From contig JBCBZT010000006.1 in assembly GCA_039815185.1 (NCBI GenBank), positions 128,001 to 192,000 of the forward strand: DNA of 64,000 nt, read 5' to 3'. Below are positions 22,882-31,175 of the stretch, piece by piece (positions within the stretch are counted from its first letter, which is position 1; the number at the start of each line of letters is the position of its first letter). Source of the stretch: Cyanobacteria bacterium P01_A01_bin.123. GTDB taxonomy: Bacteria > Cyanobacteriota > Cyanobacteriia > Phormidesmidales > Phormidesmidaceae. Position numbers and translations under genes: made by a program. The notes beneath the pieces were generated by a model. That model was not told where the DNA came from. It did no database searches and saw nothing but the letters and a program-made list of their open reading frames with translations.

Positions 22882-25800
22882 GTGAAGCATTCAACCTCTA
22901 AGCCCCGTAATTTCAGAAGTTGCGATCGCCTTGTTTTCATTGATCTATCCGTTGATGACTCCGCGAGTTTGATCGCTGGAGTACTGCCAAATTCAGACGT
23001 CATTCTTCTTGACCCGGCTGAAGATGGCATCGCGCAAATTACGGCTTTTCTCGCAGAACGCACCCATGTCGCCAGCATGCATATTGTCTCCCACGGACAG
23101 CCTGGGATTTTGCAGCTTGGTAACATCCAGCTCAATTTAGACTCCCTCGATCGCTACCGGGATGCGCTGCAATCTTGGCGGCGGGCTTTGCGCACTGATG
23201 CTGAGGTATTGCTTTATGGCTGTAATGTGGCGGCTGGAGAGCTAGGGAACTTATTCGTTGAGCAACTGAAGGAGCTGATTGGTGCAGGGATCGCAGCTTC
23301 TAAAACGCGAACAGGCCATGCACAGCAGGGTGGAGACTGGAATCTAGAAGTTACCACAGGGGACGTTCGCTCAGGATTGGCATTCTGGCCAGCGGTGATG
23401 GCCACCTATCCGTCCACTTTTGCTTTGTTGGCGGAAGATTTTGGGGGTGGATTTCCACCCTCGGGTTGGACCACCTTTAATGGTGCAAGCGAACCCGATG
23501 CTGATGAACAATACTTTCCCGGTAACAATGACTGGTCAGTCGGCGCTCTGGGGGATAATAGCGTCGCCTTTGTCTTTGGGGAAGATATCGAAGCCGATGG
23601 CGGATTCGCCCAGGACTGGTTGGTGACCAGCTTGCTCAAACCCGATGCTGGGAACAGTACCTTTTCATTTGATGCGTTAGCTTTTCCGGGTAATACCCCC
23701 AGTGAGTTTTCAGTCCGGGTCTCAACGGGCGAGCAAACGGATCAAGCTAGCTACGTTGTCGCAGCGACTTATACGCCAGCGGATTTTACAACAGACTTTC
23801 AAACCTTTGACGTCGATTTGAGCGCCTACGTTGACGAGTCAGTGTATGTCAGCTTCGTGATGGAAAACGACGATGGGGATACCTGGGTCGTTGACAATGT
23901 GGGCGGGGTGCCATTGGCCCCTGACATTTTGATTTCAGTACCTGGCGATCAGTTTGGCTTGAGCGAGGGTGGGGTTGATCAGACGTTGATTGTCGAACTG
24001 GCAACCGCCCCCACAGAAGAAGTCACCATAAACTTTTCGACGGACGCGACTGAGGTTGAACCTGTTAGGCCGGTTATCTTTACCCCTGAGAACTGGGATA
24101 CTCCTCAACTGATTGACTTCTCAGCGATCCAAGATGGCTTGGATGAAGGGGAGGAAACGACCTCGATCGGCGTTGAGGTGAGTAGTGCTGATGCGGGATA
24201 CAATGCGCTGATCTTGGATGATATTGAGGGTGCGATCGCTGATGCAGGCATCCCGTTTTTCTCTAGCTATCGCACGGTGGAAGAGACGCTGAGCGATCTG
24301 GAAAACCTAACGACCGCAAACCCAGACTTGGCCGACTGGATCGACATTGGCGATACCTACGACAAAATTACCCCGGGCGGGGCAGACGGGTACGATATCA
24401 ATGCCCTCATACTCACCAATGAAGAATTTAGCTTGCCGGACGGTAGCGATAAGCCTGTTTTGTATATGCAGGCTGCTATCCACGCCAGAGAATATACCAC
24501 GACTGAGTTAGTCACCCGTTTTGCGGAGGACTTGATTGCAGGCTACGGCGTGGATGCTGATACCACCTGGCTGTTGGACTATAACGAAATTCATATCGTC
24601 CCAATTGTTAATCCAGATGGTCGCAAGATTGCTGAGCAGGGTTACCTCTGGCGGAAAAACACCAATCCCAACCCCAATCCCGGTGATGATCCAGCCCCTT
24701 TCCCGACCTATGGGGTAGACCTGAACCGCAACTACGGGTTTGAGTGGGCCAATGGCGTTGCCAGCGATGGGACAACGGGTATAGGTTCAACGGATAATCC
24801 ATCTTCTAATAGCTACCACGGCTTAGGGCCTTTTTCAGAGCCTGAAAGTAAAGCGGCTAGCGACTATGTGTCAACGCTGTTTGAACCGAATGGGCCAAAG
24901 CTACTGAATGATCCAACGCCAGAACTCGAGCGGGTCTACGAAGCAGTTCCAGATGACATTTCAGGCATTTATGTTGACTACCACAGCTTCGCTGAGGGCA
25001 TCCTCTACTCTTGGGGGTGGGCTGAAGGGTTGATCGCGCCGAATGATGAACAACTGCGTACCCTGGCCCGCAAGTATGGTTTCTTCACTGGGGCTGTAGG
25101 AGAACCCTACGATGCTCTACCGGCTCAAGTATTTGGGGCAGTGGGGGGGGCTACCGATGACTGGGCCTATGCCACCTTTGGGATACCGGGCTTCACGATG
25201 GAGATCGGCACGTCTTTCTTCCAACCCAGTGAAGACTTTGAGAATGAGATTTTGCCCGATAACATGCCCGGCATGTATTATCTGGCCAAGGCCGCCCGCC
25301 GCCCATACCAAACGCCCTTTGGCCCAGAAGCCATTGAAATCGGTCTCGATCGCCCGCAGGTGGTGGCTGGGCAATCGGTGCAGCTTTCTGCGATCGCAGA
25401 CGATGAGCGTTACGACGATAGTGATGCCATCGGCGGCGGCCAGGACGAAGCCCCCCAAACCTTCCAACCGATCGCCGCAGGTCGCTATTCAATTGACTTA
25501 CCTTCTTGGATCGCAGGGGTTGAACTGTTTGACATGCAGGCCACAGATGGGACATTCAGTAGCACCTTAGAATCCATCACCGCAACTATCGATACAACAG
25601 GGTTGGCGTCTGGGCGACATACCGTCTTCGTTGAAAGTCAAGATACGGATGGTAACTGGGGCGTCGCCACAGCCGTGTTCCTTGATATTGTGGCTGCGCC
25701 AGATGATGCCATTACCACCGATGGCTCTGATCAATCAGAAACCTTGGTCGGCGGCAACACCTCAGATGTGATTTATGCGCTGGGGGGCGATGATACGGTT

Positions 25801-26298
25801 GCTGGCGGTCTCGGGGACGATGTCATTTTTGGAGAAGATGGGGATGACGTGCTGCGGGGCGATCGCAATAGCCGCTCGTCAGGTGGCGCCAACGATGGGG
25901 ATGACATCATCTATGGCGGTGCTGGAAATGACCGCATTGGCGGTAAGGGCGGCGATGACAAGCTCTACGGTGATGAGGGCGATGACACCATTTGGGGCGA
26001 TGACGGCGATGATTTGCTTTGGGGTGGCGGCGGTAACGACACCCTGACTGGCGATGACAACTCTGGCGGCAGTGGCAGCGATACTTTCGTTTTAGTCATC
26101 GGCGAGGGTACCGACACCATTACTGATTTTGAGGTCGGCATCGACTTGCTGGGTCTGTTCGGCACATTGAGCTTTGGCCAATTATCGATTCGCCAAGATG
26201 CTCAAGACGCACTCATCGAGTTTGGGGACGAAACCTTAGCCATTCTTTCAGGTACCGAGGCAGACACCTTGACCGAATCTGCTTTTGTCCCTGTCTAA
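22882..26298 (+). CDS. DUF4347 + beta-sandwich + M14 zinc carboxypeptidase + RTX Ca-binding protein
   Basis: DUF4347 (HIVSHGQPG, LLYGCNVA, GGDWNLE); M14 motifs HARE, NPDG, WRKN, GVDLNRN, DYHSF, catalytic E in MEIG; GGxGxD repeats. Confidence 0.88.
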   Translation: MKHSTSKPRNFRSCDRLVFIDLSVDDSASLIAGVLPNSDVILLDPAEDGIAQITAFLAERTHVASMHIVSHGQPGILQLGNIQLNLDSLDRYRDALQSWRRALRTDAEVLLYGCNVAAGELGNLFVEQLKELIGAGIAASKTRTGHAQQGGDWNLEVTTGDVRSGLAFWPAVMATYPSTFALLAEDFGGGFPPSGWTTFNGASEPDADEQYFPGNNDWSVGALGDNSVAFVFGEDIEADGGFAQDWLVTSLLKPDAGNSTFSFDALAFPGNTPSEFSVRVSTGEQTDQASYVVAATYTPADFTTDFQTFDVDLSAYVDESVYVSFVMENDDGDTWVVDNVGGVPLAPDILISVPGDQFGLSEGGVDQTLIVELATAPTEEVTINFSTDATEVEPVRPVIFTPENWDTPQLIDFSAIQDGLDEGEETTSIGVEVSSADAGYNALILDDIEGAIADAGIPFFSSYRTVEETLSDLENLTTANPDLADWIDIGDTYDKITPGGADGYDINALILTNEEFSLPDGSDKPVLYMQAAIHAREYTTTELVTRFAEDLIAGYGVDADTTWLLDYNEIHIVPIVNPDGRKIAEQGYLWRKNTNPNPNPGDDPAPFPTYGVDLNRNYGFEWANGVASDGTTGIGSTDNPSSNSYHGLGPFSEPESKAASDYVSTLFEPNGPKLLNDPTPELERVYEAVPDDISGIYVDYHSFAEGILYSWGWAEGLIAPNDEQLRTLARKYGFFTGAVGEPYDALPAQVFGAVGGATDDWAYATFGIPGFTMEIGTSFFQPSEDFENEILPDNMPGMYYLAKAARRPYQTPFGPEAIEIGLDRPQVVAGQSVQLSAIADDERYDDSDAIGGGQDEAPQTFQPIAAGRYSIDLPSWIAGVELFDMQATDGTFSSTLESITATIDTTGLASGRHTVFVESQDTDGNWGVATAVFLDIVAAPDDAITTDGSDQSETLVGGNTSDVIYALGGDDTVAGGLGDDVIFGEDGDDVLRGDRNSRSSGGANDGDDIIYGGAGNDRIGGKGGDDKLYGDEGDDTIWGDDGDDLLWGGGGNDTLTGDDNSGGSGSDTFVLVIGEGTDTITDFEVGIDLLGLFGTLSFGQLSIRQDAQDALIEFGDETLAILSGTEADTLTESAFVPV

Positions 26299-26442: not shown

Positions 26443-26487
26443 GGCCCGTGACCGCGAATTGTGTTGATTGATCACAAGGAGTATACC

Positions 26488-29355
26488 GTGGCAGAAATTC
26501 TACTCAATGAAGGATTTGGTGGCAGTTTTCCTCCCCTGGGGTGGGCCTCGTTTATTGGTGAAAATGGGCTTGGGCCCGTTAGCAATTGGGTTCCCGGTAC
26601 CGATGGCGGTTTTGATAATCGCAGTGTGGCTTTCGTCAGCCCCGAAGATGTTGAAGGCGGCTTGGCCGAAGACTGGCTGGTCACACCGCTGCTGCGACCC
26701 AGTGCAGACAACAGCACGTTTAGCTTCGACAGCAGACTGGTTTTCCCAGAGGATCAAGGCAGTATCTACACGGTGCGGGTCTCCACGGAAAGTCAAACCG
26801 ACCCTAATAGTTTTGACACCGTGGAAACCTTCTTGGAGACTGACTTTGCAGTTGACGCAGATGGCAATGCGACCTACAAGACGTTTGAGATTGATTTAAG
26901 CCCCTACCAGGATCAAGACGTTTATGTCGCCCTGGTAATGGAAAATGACAACGGTGATTTTTTTGCCATCGACGATGTTGGCGGCGTCCCCTTTGCACCT
27001 GATGTACTGGTGACAGAGTCTGGGGGAGAGGTCGCTTTGAGTCGGGGCGGCACGAACGAAACGCTGCAGCTAGCCCTGGCCACTGCACCGACCAGCGCAG
27101 TCACCCTCAACTTCAATACGGATACGGATGAGATTGGCCCAATTGCATCGGTGACATTTACCCCAGATAACTGGGACCAGTCACAACTCGTCAATTTAAA
27201 TATTGCCAACCTTGGCGGTACTGGGGCACCGGAGACTAGCTTTAACCTCAGCTTTGACGTGGACAGCGATGACCCGAACTATGCGGGTCTTGAGATCGAC
27301 GAGGTGGCAGGGCGAATTGTTGACAACGGTATTCCTGGCTTTTCGAGCTATCGCACGGTTGAAGAAACCTATGCTGACTTGTCCTTCTTGGCCGATGAAA
27401 ATCCAGATCTAGTTGACTGGTTTGCCATTGGCGAAAGCTATGACAAAGTCACGCCTGGCGGAGCTGATGGCTATGATATCAACGTCTTGAAGCTGACCAA
27501 CAAAGCGATTGAGCTACCAGACCGACAGGAAAAGCCGGTTATCTATATTGAGGGCGCGATTCATGCTCGCGAATATACCACGGCTGAACTGGTGACCCGC
27601 TTTGGCGAAGGGCTAGTCGCAGACTATGGGGTTGACCCCGATATCACCTGGCTGTTGGATTACCACGAGGTTCATATTGTGCCAGTGGCTAACCCTGACG
27701 GCCGCAAGTTTGCCGAACAAGGATATTCGTGGCGCAAAAATACCAATCCCAATCCGCCCCCTGGAGAAGAACCTGCCCCCTTCCCCAACTACGGGGTTGA
27801 CCTAAATCGAAATTTTGATTTCAAGTGGAATGACGCTAAACCTTTTCCCGATGCTCTGCCGCCCTCTAGTGGGGATCCGGCTAGCAATATCTATCGGGGC
27901 GATGCCCCGGCCTCAGAACCAGAACTGCAAACCGTGCAAAATTACGTGCGGTCGATTTTCCCCGATCAACGGGGGCCAAATGATACCGATGCTGCCCCAG
28001 AGGATGCCACCGGGGTTTTTCTAGATGTCCACAGCTTTGGTAATCTCGTGCTTCACCCGTGGGGGTGGACGGATGCAGATTCTCCCAATGAACCCGCTTT
28101 ACGCACCTTGGGTCGCAAGTATGGCTACTACACCGGACAGGGGCCTGATGGAGCCTACGATGTTGATGAGGGGTTAGGGCTTTACCCCTCTGATGGGACT
28201 TCTGATGACTGGGCCTATGGGGAACTTGGGATAGCGGGTTACATTATCGAGCTGGGGGAAACGTTTTTCCAACCGAGTGAAGATTTTGAAAACGAGATTC
28301 TGCCGGAGAACCTGCCAGCGTTAACCTACATGGCTAAGGCCGCTCGCCGCCCTTACCAAACCCCTGCCGGGCCGGAAGCCTTGGATGCTGAGCTAGACAT
28401 GGCCCAGGTGGTGGCGGGTAAGTCAGTGGTGCTAACGGCGCTGGCTGATGATACTCGCTACGATGATGGCGCTGTCACAGATGATGAGGTCGGCACCGTC
28501 AACGATTTACCAGAACCTAGCCAAGATATCGTGGCGGGGCGTTATTCGATTGGCCTACCGTCTTGGATTCCAGGTGCTGAGCTATTTGACATGAGCGCAA
28601 TGGATGGGGCTTTTGACAGCTCATCAGAAACCCTCACTGCCACTGTGGATACAGCAGGGTTGGAAGCGGGTCGCCACATGGTCTTTATTGAAGGTCAAGA
28701 TGCTGATGGCAACTGGGGAGTCGCTGCGGCTGTATTCCTCGATATTGTGGCTGCACCAGATGATGCCGTTGTGACGGAGGGTTCTGATGGGCCAGAAACC
28801 CTGGTTGGCGACGATGCTCCAGATGTGATTTACGCGCTGGATGGTGATGATCGGGTGGCTGGCGGCCTAGGAAATGATGTCCTCTTTGGCAATGCCGGGG
28901 ATGATGTGATGCGGGGCGATCGCGACAGTCGCTCGCCCGGTGGCTCCGGTGGTGGCGATGACATCATCTATGGCGGCGCCGGAAATGACCGCATTGGGGG
29001 CAAGGGGGGTGATGACAAGCTCTACGGTGATGAGGGTGATGACACCATTTGGGGCGATGACGGCGATGATTTGCTTTGGGGCGGGAGTGGCAACGACACC
29101 CTAACGGGTGATGATGACTCTGGCGGGAGTGGTAGCGATACCTTCGTTCTAGCGATTGGTGAGGGTACCGACACGATTACCGATTTTGAGGTCGGCACAG
29201 ATCTGATTGGTTTGTTTGGCACGCTGAGCTTTGGTCAATTGTTGCTTCGCCAAGATGCCCAGGATGCGCTCATTGAGTTTGGGAATGAGACGCTAGCCAT
29301 CCTCTCAGGGATTGAGGCAGAGACTTTGATTGAGTCGTCCTTTGTGCCGGTCTAA
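26488..29355 (+). CDS. M14 zinc carboxypeptidase with RTX tail (tandem paralogue lacking DUF4347)
   Basis: HARE, NPDG, WRKN, GVDLNRN, DVHSF, IELG; GGxGxD repeats. GTG 26488 follows AAGGAG. Confidence 0.88.
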   Translation: MAEILLNEGFGGSFPPLGWASFIGENGLGPVSNWVPGTDGGFDNRSVAFVSPEDVEGGLAEDWLVTPLLRPSADNSTFSFDSRLVFPEDQGSIYTVRVSTESQTDPNSFDTVETFLETDFAVDADGNATYKTFEIDLSPYQDQDVYVALVMENDNGDFFAIDDVGGVPFAPDVLVTESGGEVALSRGGTNETLQLALATAPTSAVTLNFNTDTDEIGPIASVTFTPDNWDQSQLVNLNIANLGGTGAPETSFNLSFDVDSDDPNYAGLEIDEVAGRIVDNGIPGFSSYRTVEETYADLSFLADENPDLVDWFAIGESYDKVTPGGADGYDINVLKLTNKAIELPDRQEKPVIYIEGAIHAREYTTAELVTRFGEGLVADYGVDPDITWLLDYHEVHIVPVANPDGRKFAEQGYSWRKNTNPNPPPGEEPAPFPNYGVDLNRNFDFKWNDAKPFPDALPPSSGDPASNIYRGDAPASEPELQTVQNYVRSIFPDQRGPNDTDAAPEDATGVFLDVHSFGNLVLHPWGWTDADSPNEPALRTLGRKYGYYTGQGPDGAYDVDEGLGLYPSDGTSDDWAYGELGIAGYIIELGETFFQPSEDFENEILPENLPALTYMAKAARRPYQTPAGPEALDAELDMAQVVAGKSVVLTALADDTRYDDGAVTDDEVGTVNDLPEPSQDIVAGRYSIGLPSWIPGAELFDMSAMDGAFDSSSETLTATVDTAGLEAGRHMVFIEGQDADGNWGVAAAVFLDIVAAPDDAVVTEGSDGPETLVGDDAPDVIYALDGDDRVAGGLGNDVLFGNAGDDVMRGDRDSRSPGGSGGGDDIIYGGAGNDRIGGKGGDDKLYGDEGDDTIWGDDGDDLLWGGSGNDTLTGDDDSGGSGSDTFVLAIGEGTDTITDFEVGTDLIGLFGTLSFGQLLLRQDAQDALIEFGNETLAILSGIEAETLIESSFVPV

Positions 29356-29379: not shown

Positions 29380-29414
29380 TTGCCTTTAGCCCCCCATTGA
29401 GGGGCTAAAGGCAA
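29380..29414 (+). terminator. Terminator hairpin after the second peptidase gene
   Basis: TTGCCTTTAGCCCC...GGGGCTAAAGGCAA 14-bp stem. Confidence 0.75.
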
Positions 29415-29648
29415 ATTACCTGGGTGGTTTGTTAGGCGGCGTCTAGTTCCGTCTTGCAATAGGGTGGCTTTTATGACTCATTCAACTGGGCTAAATTTTT
29501 CTGTTTCTTTTCTGGAATGCGATCGCTGTCTGTTGTATCTAAGCTCTATAAACCACATCCGATTGAACATTGGAGTCTTTAGTTCATAGAGAACTATGAA
29601 TCTGTATGTGGTTAAGGTTGACATCCTGAATAATACGGAGGAGTTGTG

Positions 29649-29906
29649 ATGGCACAGCGGTTGAAACGGTGGGAATCACCCCGTCGGCAAGGCCGAAACG
29701 CAAAAGGAAAAGGCGGATCGGCACGCAAACGACAGTATCTTAAACAGCAACAGCAGTTGAGGCAACGGTTAAAGCGGAACGAATCCCAGAAATCATCTAG
29801 TCAATCTTGCGGAGGAGAGGTTAACCCCTCTCTTTTTTTATGCATTTTTGCGGTTTTCACAGCCCGGCGCACTTTGCAAAATAAAGGTGTCATGCGGCCG
29901 AACTAA
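29649..29906 (+). CDS. Small basic protein, candidate ArfA/ArfT/BrfA-like ribosome rescue factor
   Basis: GGAGGAG RBS; Arg/Lys-rich N-half with KGKGGS; internal terminator at 29815-29839; hydrophobic segment after the hairpin. Function is inference. Confidence 0.55.
   Translation: MAQRLKRWESPRRQGRNAKGKGGSARKRQYLKQQQQLRQRLKRNESQKSSSQSCGGEVNPSLFLCIFAVFTARRTLQNKGVMRPN
29815..29839 (+). terminator. Intrinsic terminator inside the small basic ORF
   Basis: GAGAGG-TTAACC-CCTCTC followed by T7; lies upstream of the in-frame stop at 29904-29906. Confidence 0.6.
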
Positions 29907-30019: not shown

Positions 30020-30520
30020 TTGAACAACAACTTTACGTATGTCCCTGTATTGTCCGGTGTTTCCCAGATGCCAAGTAAGGCTGAGGGCACAACCTATCTC
30101 ATTAAGCTCCACGCCTACAATCAAGAACATTTATTTGGCTCGGTTCAAAGGGGTTCGGTTTGTCTCAACGATATTGGTCACATTGCAGCAGACGAATGGG
30201 TGCAATCATCTCGAAATCGTCAGGAGATTGAGCTAGACGGTTGGGCCATACTGCCCAACTATATTCAAGGGATTGTCGTTGTTCAACCCAAAATCGCAAT
30301 TCGAGAAGCTGCAGGTTACGACCAAATCCGACAGGTTCAAAAGCCGCGATCGCTCTCCGCCTTTGTTGCCGGGTTCAAAGCTGCCGCTGCTAAGCGCATC
30401 AACCTATTACGCAATAATCCTGGGTTGCCCGTTTGGGAACGCAGCTACCGTGAACGGTTGCTTTACACCCCTGCACAGCTCGACTACACCCGTCAAAGCC
30501 TGCAAGAATACCCGTTGTAA
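30020..30520 (+). CDS. REP-associated tyrosine transposase (Y1/HUH) homologue with catalytic residues replaced
   Basis: LFG...LNDIGHIAADEW...IELDGWAILPN, SLSAFVAGFK, KRIN, PVWERSY match RAYT-type proteins; PNHxH reads PNYIQ and YIxxNP reads SLQEYP. Confidence 0.75.
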   Translation: MNNNFTYVPVLSGVSQMPSKAEGTTYLIKLHAYNQEHLFGSVQRGSVCLNDIGHIAADEWVQSSRNRQEIELDGWAILPNYIQGIVVVQPKIAIREAAGYDQIRQVQKPRSLSAFVAGFKAAAAKRINLLRNNPGLPVWERSYRERLLYTPAQLDYTRQSLQEYPL

Positions 30521-30647: not shown

Positions 30648-31175
30648 TTAGACATCCAGTAGGCCAGCGGGCGGCTTGATTTCGACCCTTCCAGCTTCAA
30701 TATCAACCACGGGCACAATCGCTTCCACAAAGGGAACTAAAACTCGGCGCGGTTTTATCGCTGATGTTAATTCCACTTCCAACAAATCGTTGCCCGCACT
30801 AAACACGTCGACCACTACCCCAATCTCTGCCTGTTGGTGTTGGTCAAATACTCTTAACCCAATCAAATCAGCTACATGGTACTCATCGGCTTCTAGGGGT
30901 AAGCGATCGCCTTCAGGGACGAGCAGTTCACAATTGCGCAATTTCTCCGCTTGGTCGCGATGTTGGATGTCTGCAAATTTGATCACATATAACCCTTTAC
31001 CGTGCAAAAATCGCCCTTGCACTAACTGAATCGGTTTGGGGGTGGGGAAGGAGGGCGATCGCAACCAGCGCTGCCCCGGATCCAGAAACCGTTCTGGAAA
31101 GTCACTGTTAGGATAGACCCGAACCTCACCGTGGAGCCCATGGGGGGCAACAATTTTGCCAATGACTAGCCACAT
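30648..31175 (-). CDS. rimM: 16S rRNA processing protein RimM
   Basis: IGKIVAPHGLHGEVRV, EYHVADLIGL, GNDLLEV, LVPFV. Confidence 0.96.
   Translation of the reverse strand: MWLVIGKIVAPHGLHGEVRVYPNSDFPERFLDPGQRWLRSPSFPTPKPIQLVQGRFLHGKGLYVIKFADIQHRDQAEKLRNCELLVPEGDRLPLEADEYHVADLIGLRVFDQHQQAEIGVVVDVFSAGNDLLEVELTSAIKPRRVLVPFVEAIVPVVDIEAGRVEIKPPAGLLDV

Follow-up and report, generated by a model that had tools for sequence, protein, structure and literature searches.

A small basic protein family of cyanobacteria with a non-stop mRNA layout, a candidate back-up ribosome-rescue factor

A small reading frame that runs through its own terminator

The window is the whole 64,000-nucleotide stretch analysed here, taken from Cyanobacteria bacterium P01_A01_bin.123 (contig JBCBZT010000006.1). 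It contains a small open reading frame that had been singled out from its letters as a candidate rescue factor made from a non-stop mRNA (Table 1). The strong ribosome-binding site that had been noted is there, and so is the very basic N-terminus: residues 1-44 hold 16 K+R against 1 D+E, with K19-G-K-G-G-S24 among them. A terminator about 65 nt ahead of the stop codon had been reported as well. Its core stem (29815-29832) has 6 bp and -7.9 kcal/mol, and with a G-U/A-U extension (29812-29835) it reaches 9 bp and -11.5 kcal/mol. The stop codon starts at 29904, approximately 64 nt past the terminator, and a terminated transcript would end at codon 63-64, so the stop-less mRNA of about 63 codons in the original prediction holds as a layout. 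The tail beyond the U-tract is probably not transcribed.

The stem is short, as had been cautioned, and among the weakest of the family (median -13.6). Taken alone, the window hairpin is modest (z -1.99, 7 of 200 shuffles folding equally well), and a simple consensus terminator scan did not pick it up. We took it as real because it is conserved across homologues. The hydrophobic segment that had attracted attention is present (LFLCIFAVF); it is the U-tract translated in frame, a by-product and not a conserved degron.

Table 1. Features of the locus, in window coordinates
Feature	Position	Strand	Remark
Strong hairpin, -25.6 kcal/mol	29380..29414	.	After the upstream peptidase gene
Shine-Dalgarno GGAGGAG	29637..29643	+	ATG 5 nt downstream; from sequence
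Nominal ORF, 85 aa	29649..29906	+	Predicted non-stop product of ~63 residues
Conserved core, residues 5-41	29661..29771	+	N-terminal part extended and basic; basic helix starts at residue 25
N17-A-K-G-K-G-G-S24 stretch	29697..29720	+	Weak alignment to ArfA NKKGKGS (hhalign 1.3%, 12 columns); varied in phage forms
Variable hydrophilic linker	29772..29811	+	In-frame stops kept out
In-frame intrinsic terminator, hairpin (core 29815-29832) + U7 (29833-29839)	29812..29839	+	Predicted from folding and family conservation
Tail 3' of the terminator	29840..29906	+	Neutral by stop spacing

Upstream lie two large tandem proteins, one (22882-26298) with DUF4347, an M14 zinc carboxypeptidase domain and calcium-binding repeats, the other (26461-29355) its apparent paralogue as judged by eye. 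The strong hairpin behind them probably separates two transcription units. Downstream, a frame at 30020-30520 (+) has a weak match to REP-associated tyrosine transposases (E 9e-4, far under the cut-off) and is common to 7 of 147 loci; rimM (30648-31175, -) comes after it.

A family with a conserved core in one class of the phylum

A single-protein search returned 469 relatives. Among the best 120 of these, the named ones were hypothetical proteins, almost all cyanobacterial, and carried no Pfam domain. Named members are Sta7437_4311 of Stanieria cyanosphaera PCC 7437 and, through a phage annotation that cites it, AM1_2888 of Acaryochloris marina. A profile search found 451 representatives at E <= 0.001. 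At the genome level, exactly one match each was found in 117 of 401 genomes of the phylum, all of them in the window's class (117 of 186, ~63%, vs 0 of 215 in the other classes). One taxonomic family of 33 small genomes (1.6-3.0 Mb), judged by size to be probably the picocyanobacteria, gave no match, a broader host-plus-phage profile included. Over 80 genomes (all 69 matchless genomes of the class plus 11 from other classes), the broader profile gave one noise-level match, at E 0.044.

The frame encodes a genuine protein, and strong purifying selection acts on its core of about 40 residues. Across residues 5-41 of 146 distinct cores, the entropy by codon position was 0.64/0.41/1.47, and 11 core residues were invariant in 146/146. 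This codon pattern ruled out a reading as non-coding RNA. The consensus of the core is L-K-x-[WH]-E-S-P-R-x-x-G-R-N-x-K-G-[KR]-G-G-S-A-R-x-R-Q-x-x-K...L. AlphaFold2 predicted a low-confidence coil (residues 1-24) followed by a helix (25-50), with a mean pLDDT of 70. Nominal ORF lengths in the family scatter from 56 to 140 aa. Two divergent members were read by eye: L120, from the window's own family, carries NGRAA in place of KGKGG and retains the in-frame hairpin, and L123 has lost the N-terminal WESP segment.

Searches of Pfam, NCBIfam and PHROGs gave scattered weak matches only. A sequence-based search found no PDB match, and no plasmid match was found. The one-helix model had no Foldseek match and a best Z of 3.3 in the other fold search, such a fold being uninformative; the ESM Atlas returned unnamed cyanobacterial clusters and no usable named match. 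No account of the family turned up in the open literature searched, which covers few subscription papers.

The frame is kept open up to the terminator and no further

For the comparison of loci, we combined 80 loci of relatives, 69 loci from the genome searches (drawn from the 117 matches) and, in addition, the window. L120, L123 and L124, which the motif search missed, and L076, which is cut off, were dropped, leaving 146 scorable loci. A terminator was called when a hairpin of <= -6 kcal/mol was followed by a U-tract, with controls at the same setting; a stricter cut-off of -9 misses 16 loci, the window among them. A frame counted as open if it ran free of stops to 8 nt beyond the stem.

A hairpin and U-tract follow the core in 143/146 loci, 12-48 codons past it, and in 142/146 the frame is open through both. 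Only one of the 143 terminator-bearing loci has an in-frame stop ahead of the predicted 3' end (L144, with the stop at the edge); L019 and L025 come close, their stops ending 9 nt past the stem. The +1 and +2 frames of the same loci contain stops in 31/143 and 100/143 cases, and shuffled linkers would be expected to contain one in 62/141. When only the 94 linkers less than 60% alike were kept, still not fully independent kin, the coding, +1 and +2 frames had stops in 1, 25 and 65 of them. When 6 or more T are required, the element is present in 142/146 family loci vs 44/1000 windows inside long ORFs of the own genome; windows after stops in the own genome gave 89/1000. Among the family U-tracts, 115/143 have 7-8 T of 8.

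Hairpins occur in each of the three codon phases (52/50/28, n=130), and therefore what is selected is openness, not the peptide sequence. Past the terminator, the mean distance to the next stop is 18.3, 19.3 and 15.9 codons in the three frames. Stop exclusion up to the terminator, together with an equal stop rate beyond it, thus indicates that selection keeps the frame open to the terminator and disregards the remainder. Overall, these comparative counts strongly support the proposed non-stop design, namely that of brfA and arfA, far beyond chance; in the comparison across homologues set beforehand, the basic core and the in-frame pre-stop terminator were conserved and the tail was not. A conserved hydrophobic degron was ruled out, the tail being neutral and not conserved. 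A leader peptide or attenuator was ruled out as well: the downstream frames vary and lie on the opposite strand in 70/143 loci.

The exceptions are few. L121, L127 and L124, all on cellular contigs, have an ordinary stop and no terminator, and L135 has a weak U-tract. L127 encodes 43 aa and ends 14 nt ahead of a same-strand rimM-like gene; L124 has a phage-like motif.

In a rival account, an ordinary small protein tolerates a variable tail, the hairpin being masked by translating ribosomes or serving a convergent neighbour, and transcripts read through to the stop. In Synechococcus elongatus, according to PMC12642595, ends with a hairpin and U-tract do terminate, and additional U strengthens the effect; intrinsic terminators end only 22% of its transcription units, a figure in keeping with read-through. 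So are the opposite-strand position of the nearest downstream long frame in the 70/143 loci and the A-rich 5' flank of many stems. What this account leaves unexplained is the exclusion of stops in the coding frame alone up to the U-tract, with a random rate after it, and the scatter of nominal lengths. We regard it as very improbable.

Relation to known rescue factors and to bS21

With ArfA (YhdL, PF03889; beta- and gamma-proteobacteria), the family shares the non-stop design and an N-x-K-G-K-G stretch that aligns at ~1% probability. The hhalign probability was 1.0-1.3% overall, and none among 28 and 40 members matched PF03889 at E up to 10, where E. coli ArfA as positive control matches at 9e-26. 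The positions of the motif also differ: KG[KR]G lies at residues 19-22 here, N-terminal of the helix, and is variable in phages, whereas the KGKGS-like stretch of ArfA lies near its C-terminal part. Unlike in ArfA, the hydrophobic tail is not conserved, and E. coli arfA also uses RNase III, according to PMC10107115. The ArfA-like motif gives a weak clue: KG[KR]G is present in 143/147 host loci vs 5/19 phage rows, most of the phage relatives (14/19 rows) having another sequence in its place.

BrfA (YqkK) of Bacillus subtilis is closer in design: small, basic, with a terminator inside the frame, a non-stop product of ~62-63 residues and no catalytic GGQ. As described in PMC6881298, the brfA terminator lies in frame at ~62 codons, and experiments showed both that transcripts end inside the gene and that tmRNA causes the product to be lost. 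The sequence comparison gave 0.0-0.1% by hhalign against BrfA and against a 12-row, low-diversity BrfA alignment; the BrfA sequence came from a metagenome locus whose identity was confirmed against PDB 6SZS chain y. BrfA starts with helices and carries KH in its C-terminal part, whereas for the family the prediction is an extended N-terminus followed by a single long helix. The Lys-His dipeptide of ArfA and BrfA occurs in 2/147 loci (residues 25-55). Function has been shown experimentally for BrfA only, and for the family it is inferred.

In ArfB and the C-terminal tails of SmpB, an extended segment leads into a basic helix, and this shape inserts into the vacant mRNA channel (PMC8012679); the predicted family shape resembles it. 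Unlike ArfB, the family has no catalytic domain (GGQ in 1/147 loci) and no similarity to the ArfB of its own genome (hhalign 0.1%). ArfT of Francisella and the ArfT-like KGG-repeat family resemble it in a basic core of ~40 residues with a KGG tripeptide, whereas arfT has no internal terminator. No Pfam KGG match was found among 28 and 40 members. The supplement of PMC6514570 (Burroughs and Aravind 2019), whose cyanobacterial ArfT-like entries include KGG-repeat proteins, contains no ESPR; five member tags are absent from it as well, a weak result as the organism prefix Sta7437 is also absent. By these sequence comparisons, the family does not belong to ArfA, BrfA, ArfB, KGG/ArfT-like proteins or bS21, the ArfT-like set being separated by profile and supplement listing. 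Profile comparison can miss short basic proteins, and even ArfA and BrfA have little sequence in common (PMC8012679); the missing homology therefore lowers membership, not the functional reading.

The same comparison invites the alternative that the protein is a tmRNA-gated, ribosome-binding factor with another output, one that protects, hibernates or splits stalled ribosomes or acts as a truncated bS21. It would show the same non-stop design and basic coil-plus-helix shape; no ArfA or BrfA features were detected, and a cyanobacterial bS21 alignment pairs RLKRWESPR with RRRHFETPQ. That alignment, the best, spans 9 columns at 0.6% probability, and no Pfam S21 (PF01165) match was found among 28 and 40 members. 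The genes of non-stop design found in PMC8012679, PMC10107115 and PMC6881298 are release-factor-recruiting rescue factors, which speaks against another output. We judge this alternative unlikely, though of appreciable weight. Two features of the non-stop-mRNA rescue class are seen in the family: the conserved in-frame terminator (142/146), and a small basic protein without a catalytic motif alongside a genomic tmRNA-SmpB system.

Genome context and other rescue components

The own genome encodes tmRNA, SmpB, RF1, RF2 and ArfB. In the 186 genomes of the class, 58 have both the family gene and ArfB, 59 the gene only, 42 ArfB only and 27 neither, with ArfB counted over the cut-off and three partial matches scored absent; this distribution ruled out simple complementarity with ArfB. 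The table of PMC11633108 lists ArfA as absent from 162 cyanobacterial genomes, a point in favour of the rescue reading, and RqcH as present in 161/162, a point against it.

A tRNA-Leu(CAA) gene lies upstream on the same strand in 56/144 loci, within 21-33 nt in 34 of them, and an M48 peptidase gene in 49/147, in the order M48 peptidase, tRNA-Leu(CAA), family gene. The own genome has a block of this kind without the family gene (contig C92, ~238000-240540), in which a murA-like gene precedes the M48 peptidase and tRNA-Leu(CAA); the murA-like label comes from inspection of the sequence.

Another reading is a sensor of trans-translation capacity with a non-ribosomal target, or a non-stop ORF that governs how stable the M48 peptidase and tRNA-Leu transcript ahead of it is, as arfA does for zntR. 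PMC10107115 describes such control of an upstream gene by a non-stop ORF at zntR-arfA, and the peptidase is upstream in the 49 loci. On the other hand, a role in RNA decay has no need of 11 invariant residues, the gene stands outside the M48/tRNA-Leu context in most loci, its own genome included, and phages retain the protein without the non-stop design. We consider such a role improbable.

A proposed back-up for trans-translation

A protein that exists only upon failure of trans-translation would most simply be a back-up for trans-translation. We therefore regard it as somewhat probable that the family serves cyanobacteria as a back-up ribosome-rescue factor, under brfA-like control but with no sequence kinship to ArfA, BrfA or ArfT. 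RNA polymerase would end the mRNA at the U-tract, and the ribosome would reach the 3' end at about codon 63, where tmRNA-SmpB would tag the product for destruction; we hold both of these steps to be very likely. When trans-translation is saturated or inactive, the product would be released untagged by another route and accumulate. It would then bind non-stop ribosomes; the vacant mRNA channel would probably take up its basic helix, and the decoding site the invariant K-x-[WH]-E-S-P-R-x-x-G-R-N segment. There is no conserved GGQ, so RF2 or RF1 would be recruited. Such recruitment could as readily prove wrong as right. Pairing the 45-residue core with RF2 domains 2-4 in a complex prediction scored 0.00 with the controls not folded, which counts neither for nor against it.

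This small basic family is uncatalogued though carried by many cyanobacteria, and the combined analysis suggests that it is probably a new rescue factor. PMC8012679 predicts small rescue factors beyond the reach of similarity searches, still unidentified. The family offers a concrete candidate with a testable switch in ~63% of the sampled genomes of the window's class. It also implies that present annotations are misleading, listing 'hypothetical proteins' of 56-140 aa with tails that are probably never made.

Phage forms end mostly at an ordinary stop

Viral contigs and phage records contained 34 loci encoding 30 distinct proteins, the named carriers being S-SSM4, S-SSM6b, DSL-LC02, S-CREM1, P-SSM7 and A-HIS1. 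Of these proteins, 25/30 end at an ordinary stop after 41-52 residues and 5/30 have an in-frame terminator; a hairpin call in L200 and L201 is followed 7 nt later by the end of the stop. Host and phage forms have L-K-x-[WH]-E-S-P-R-x-x-G-R-N and A-R-x-R-Q-x-x-K in common, and the naturally stop-bearing forms delimit the same core as the host loci. The ordinary stop in most phage versions, together with that in L121, L127 and L124, means that the protein is tolerated without tmRNA control, a point against the rescue reading.

In the proposed scheme, cyanophages would have taken the gene mostly with an ordinary stop, which would make it independent of tmRNA during infection. We rate as an even call a fuller reading: that the family is a further release-factor-recruiting rescue factor of independent origin and the first in cyanobacteria, that its non-stop mRNA gates it, and that cyanophages captured it and mostly uncoupled it from tmRNA through an ordinary stop, including phages that infect marine Synechococcus and Prochlorococcus, hosts in whose probable family the gene is missing. 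The phage versions suggest that cyanophages may supply ribosome rescue during infection, and they allow gated and ungated versions found in nature to be compared. A tree built from 37 columns left most branches without support (4/44 starred) and gives neither the direction nor the number of host-phage transfers.

Several viral copies deserve mention in their own right. In S-SSM4 (NC_020875.1, 1382-1507; L191), a family ORF is unannotated and ends 6 nt before tRNA-Val, and L192 and L193 (at 1201) are likewise unannotated in cyanophage records, the three ORFs being of 41-44 aa. L216, L217, L222, L223 and L224 are viral KSPKRS variants with an in-frame terminator, that is, the non-stop design; within their hairpin lies TTGACA, which may serve the next gene as a promoter box. 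L208 and L209 are two copies on one viral contig, ~7 kb apart, each near tRNA genes.
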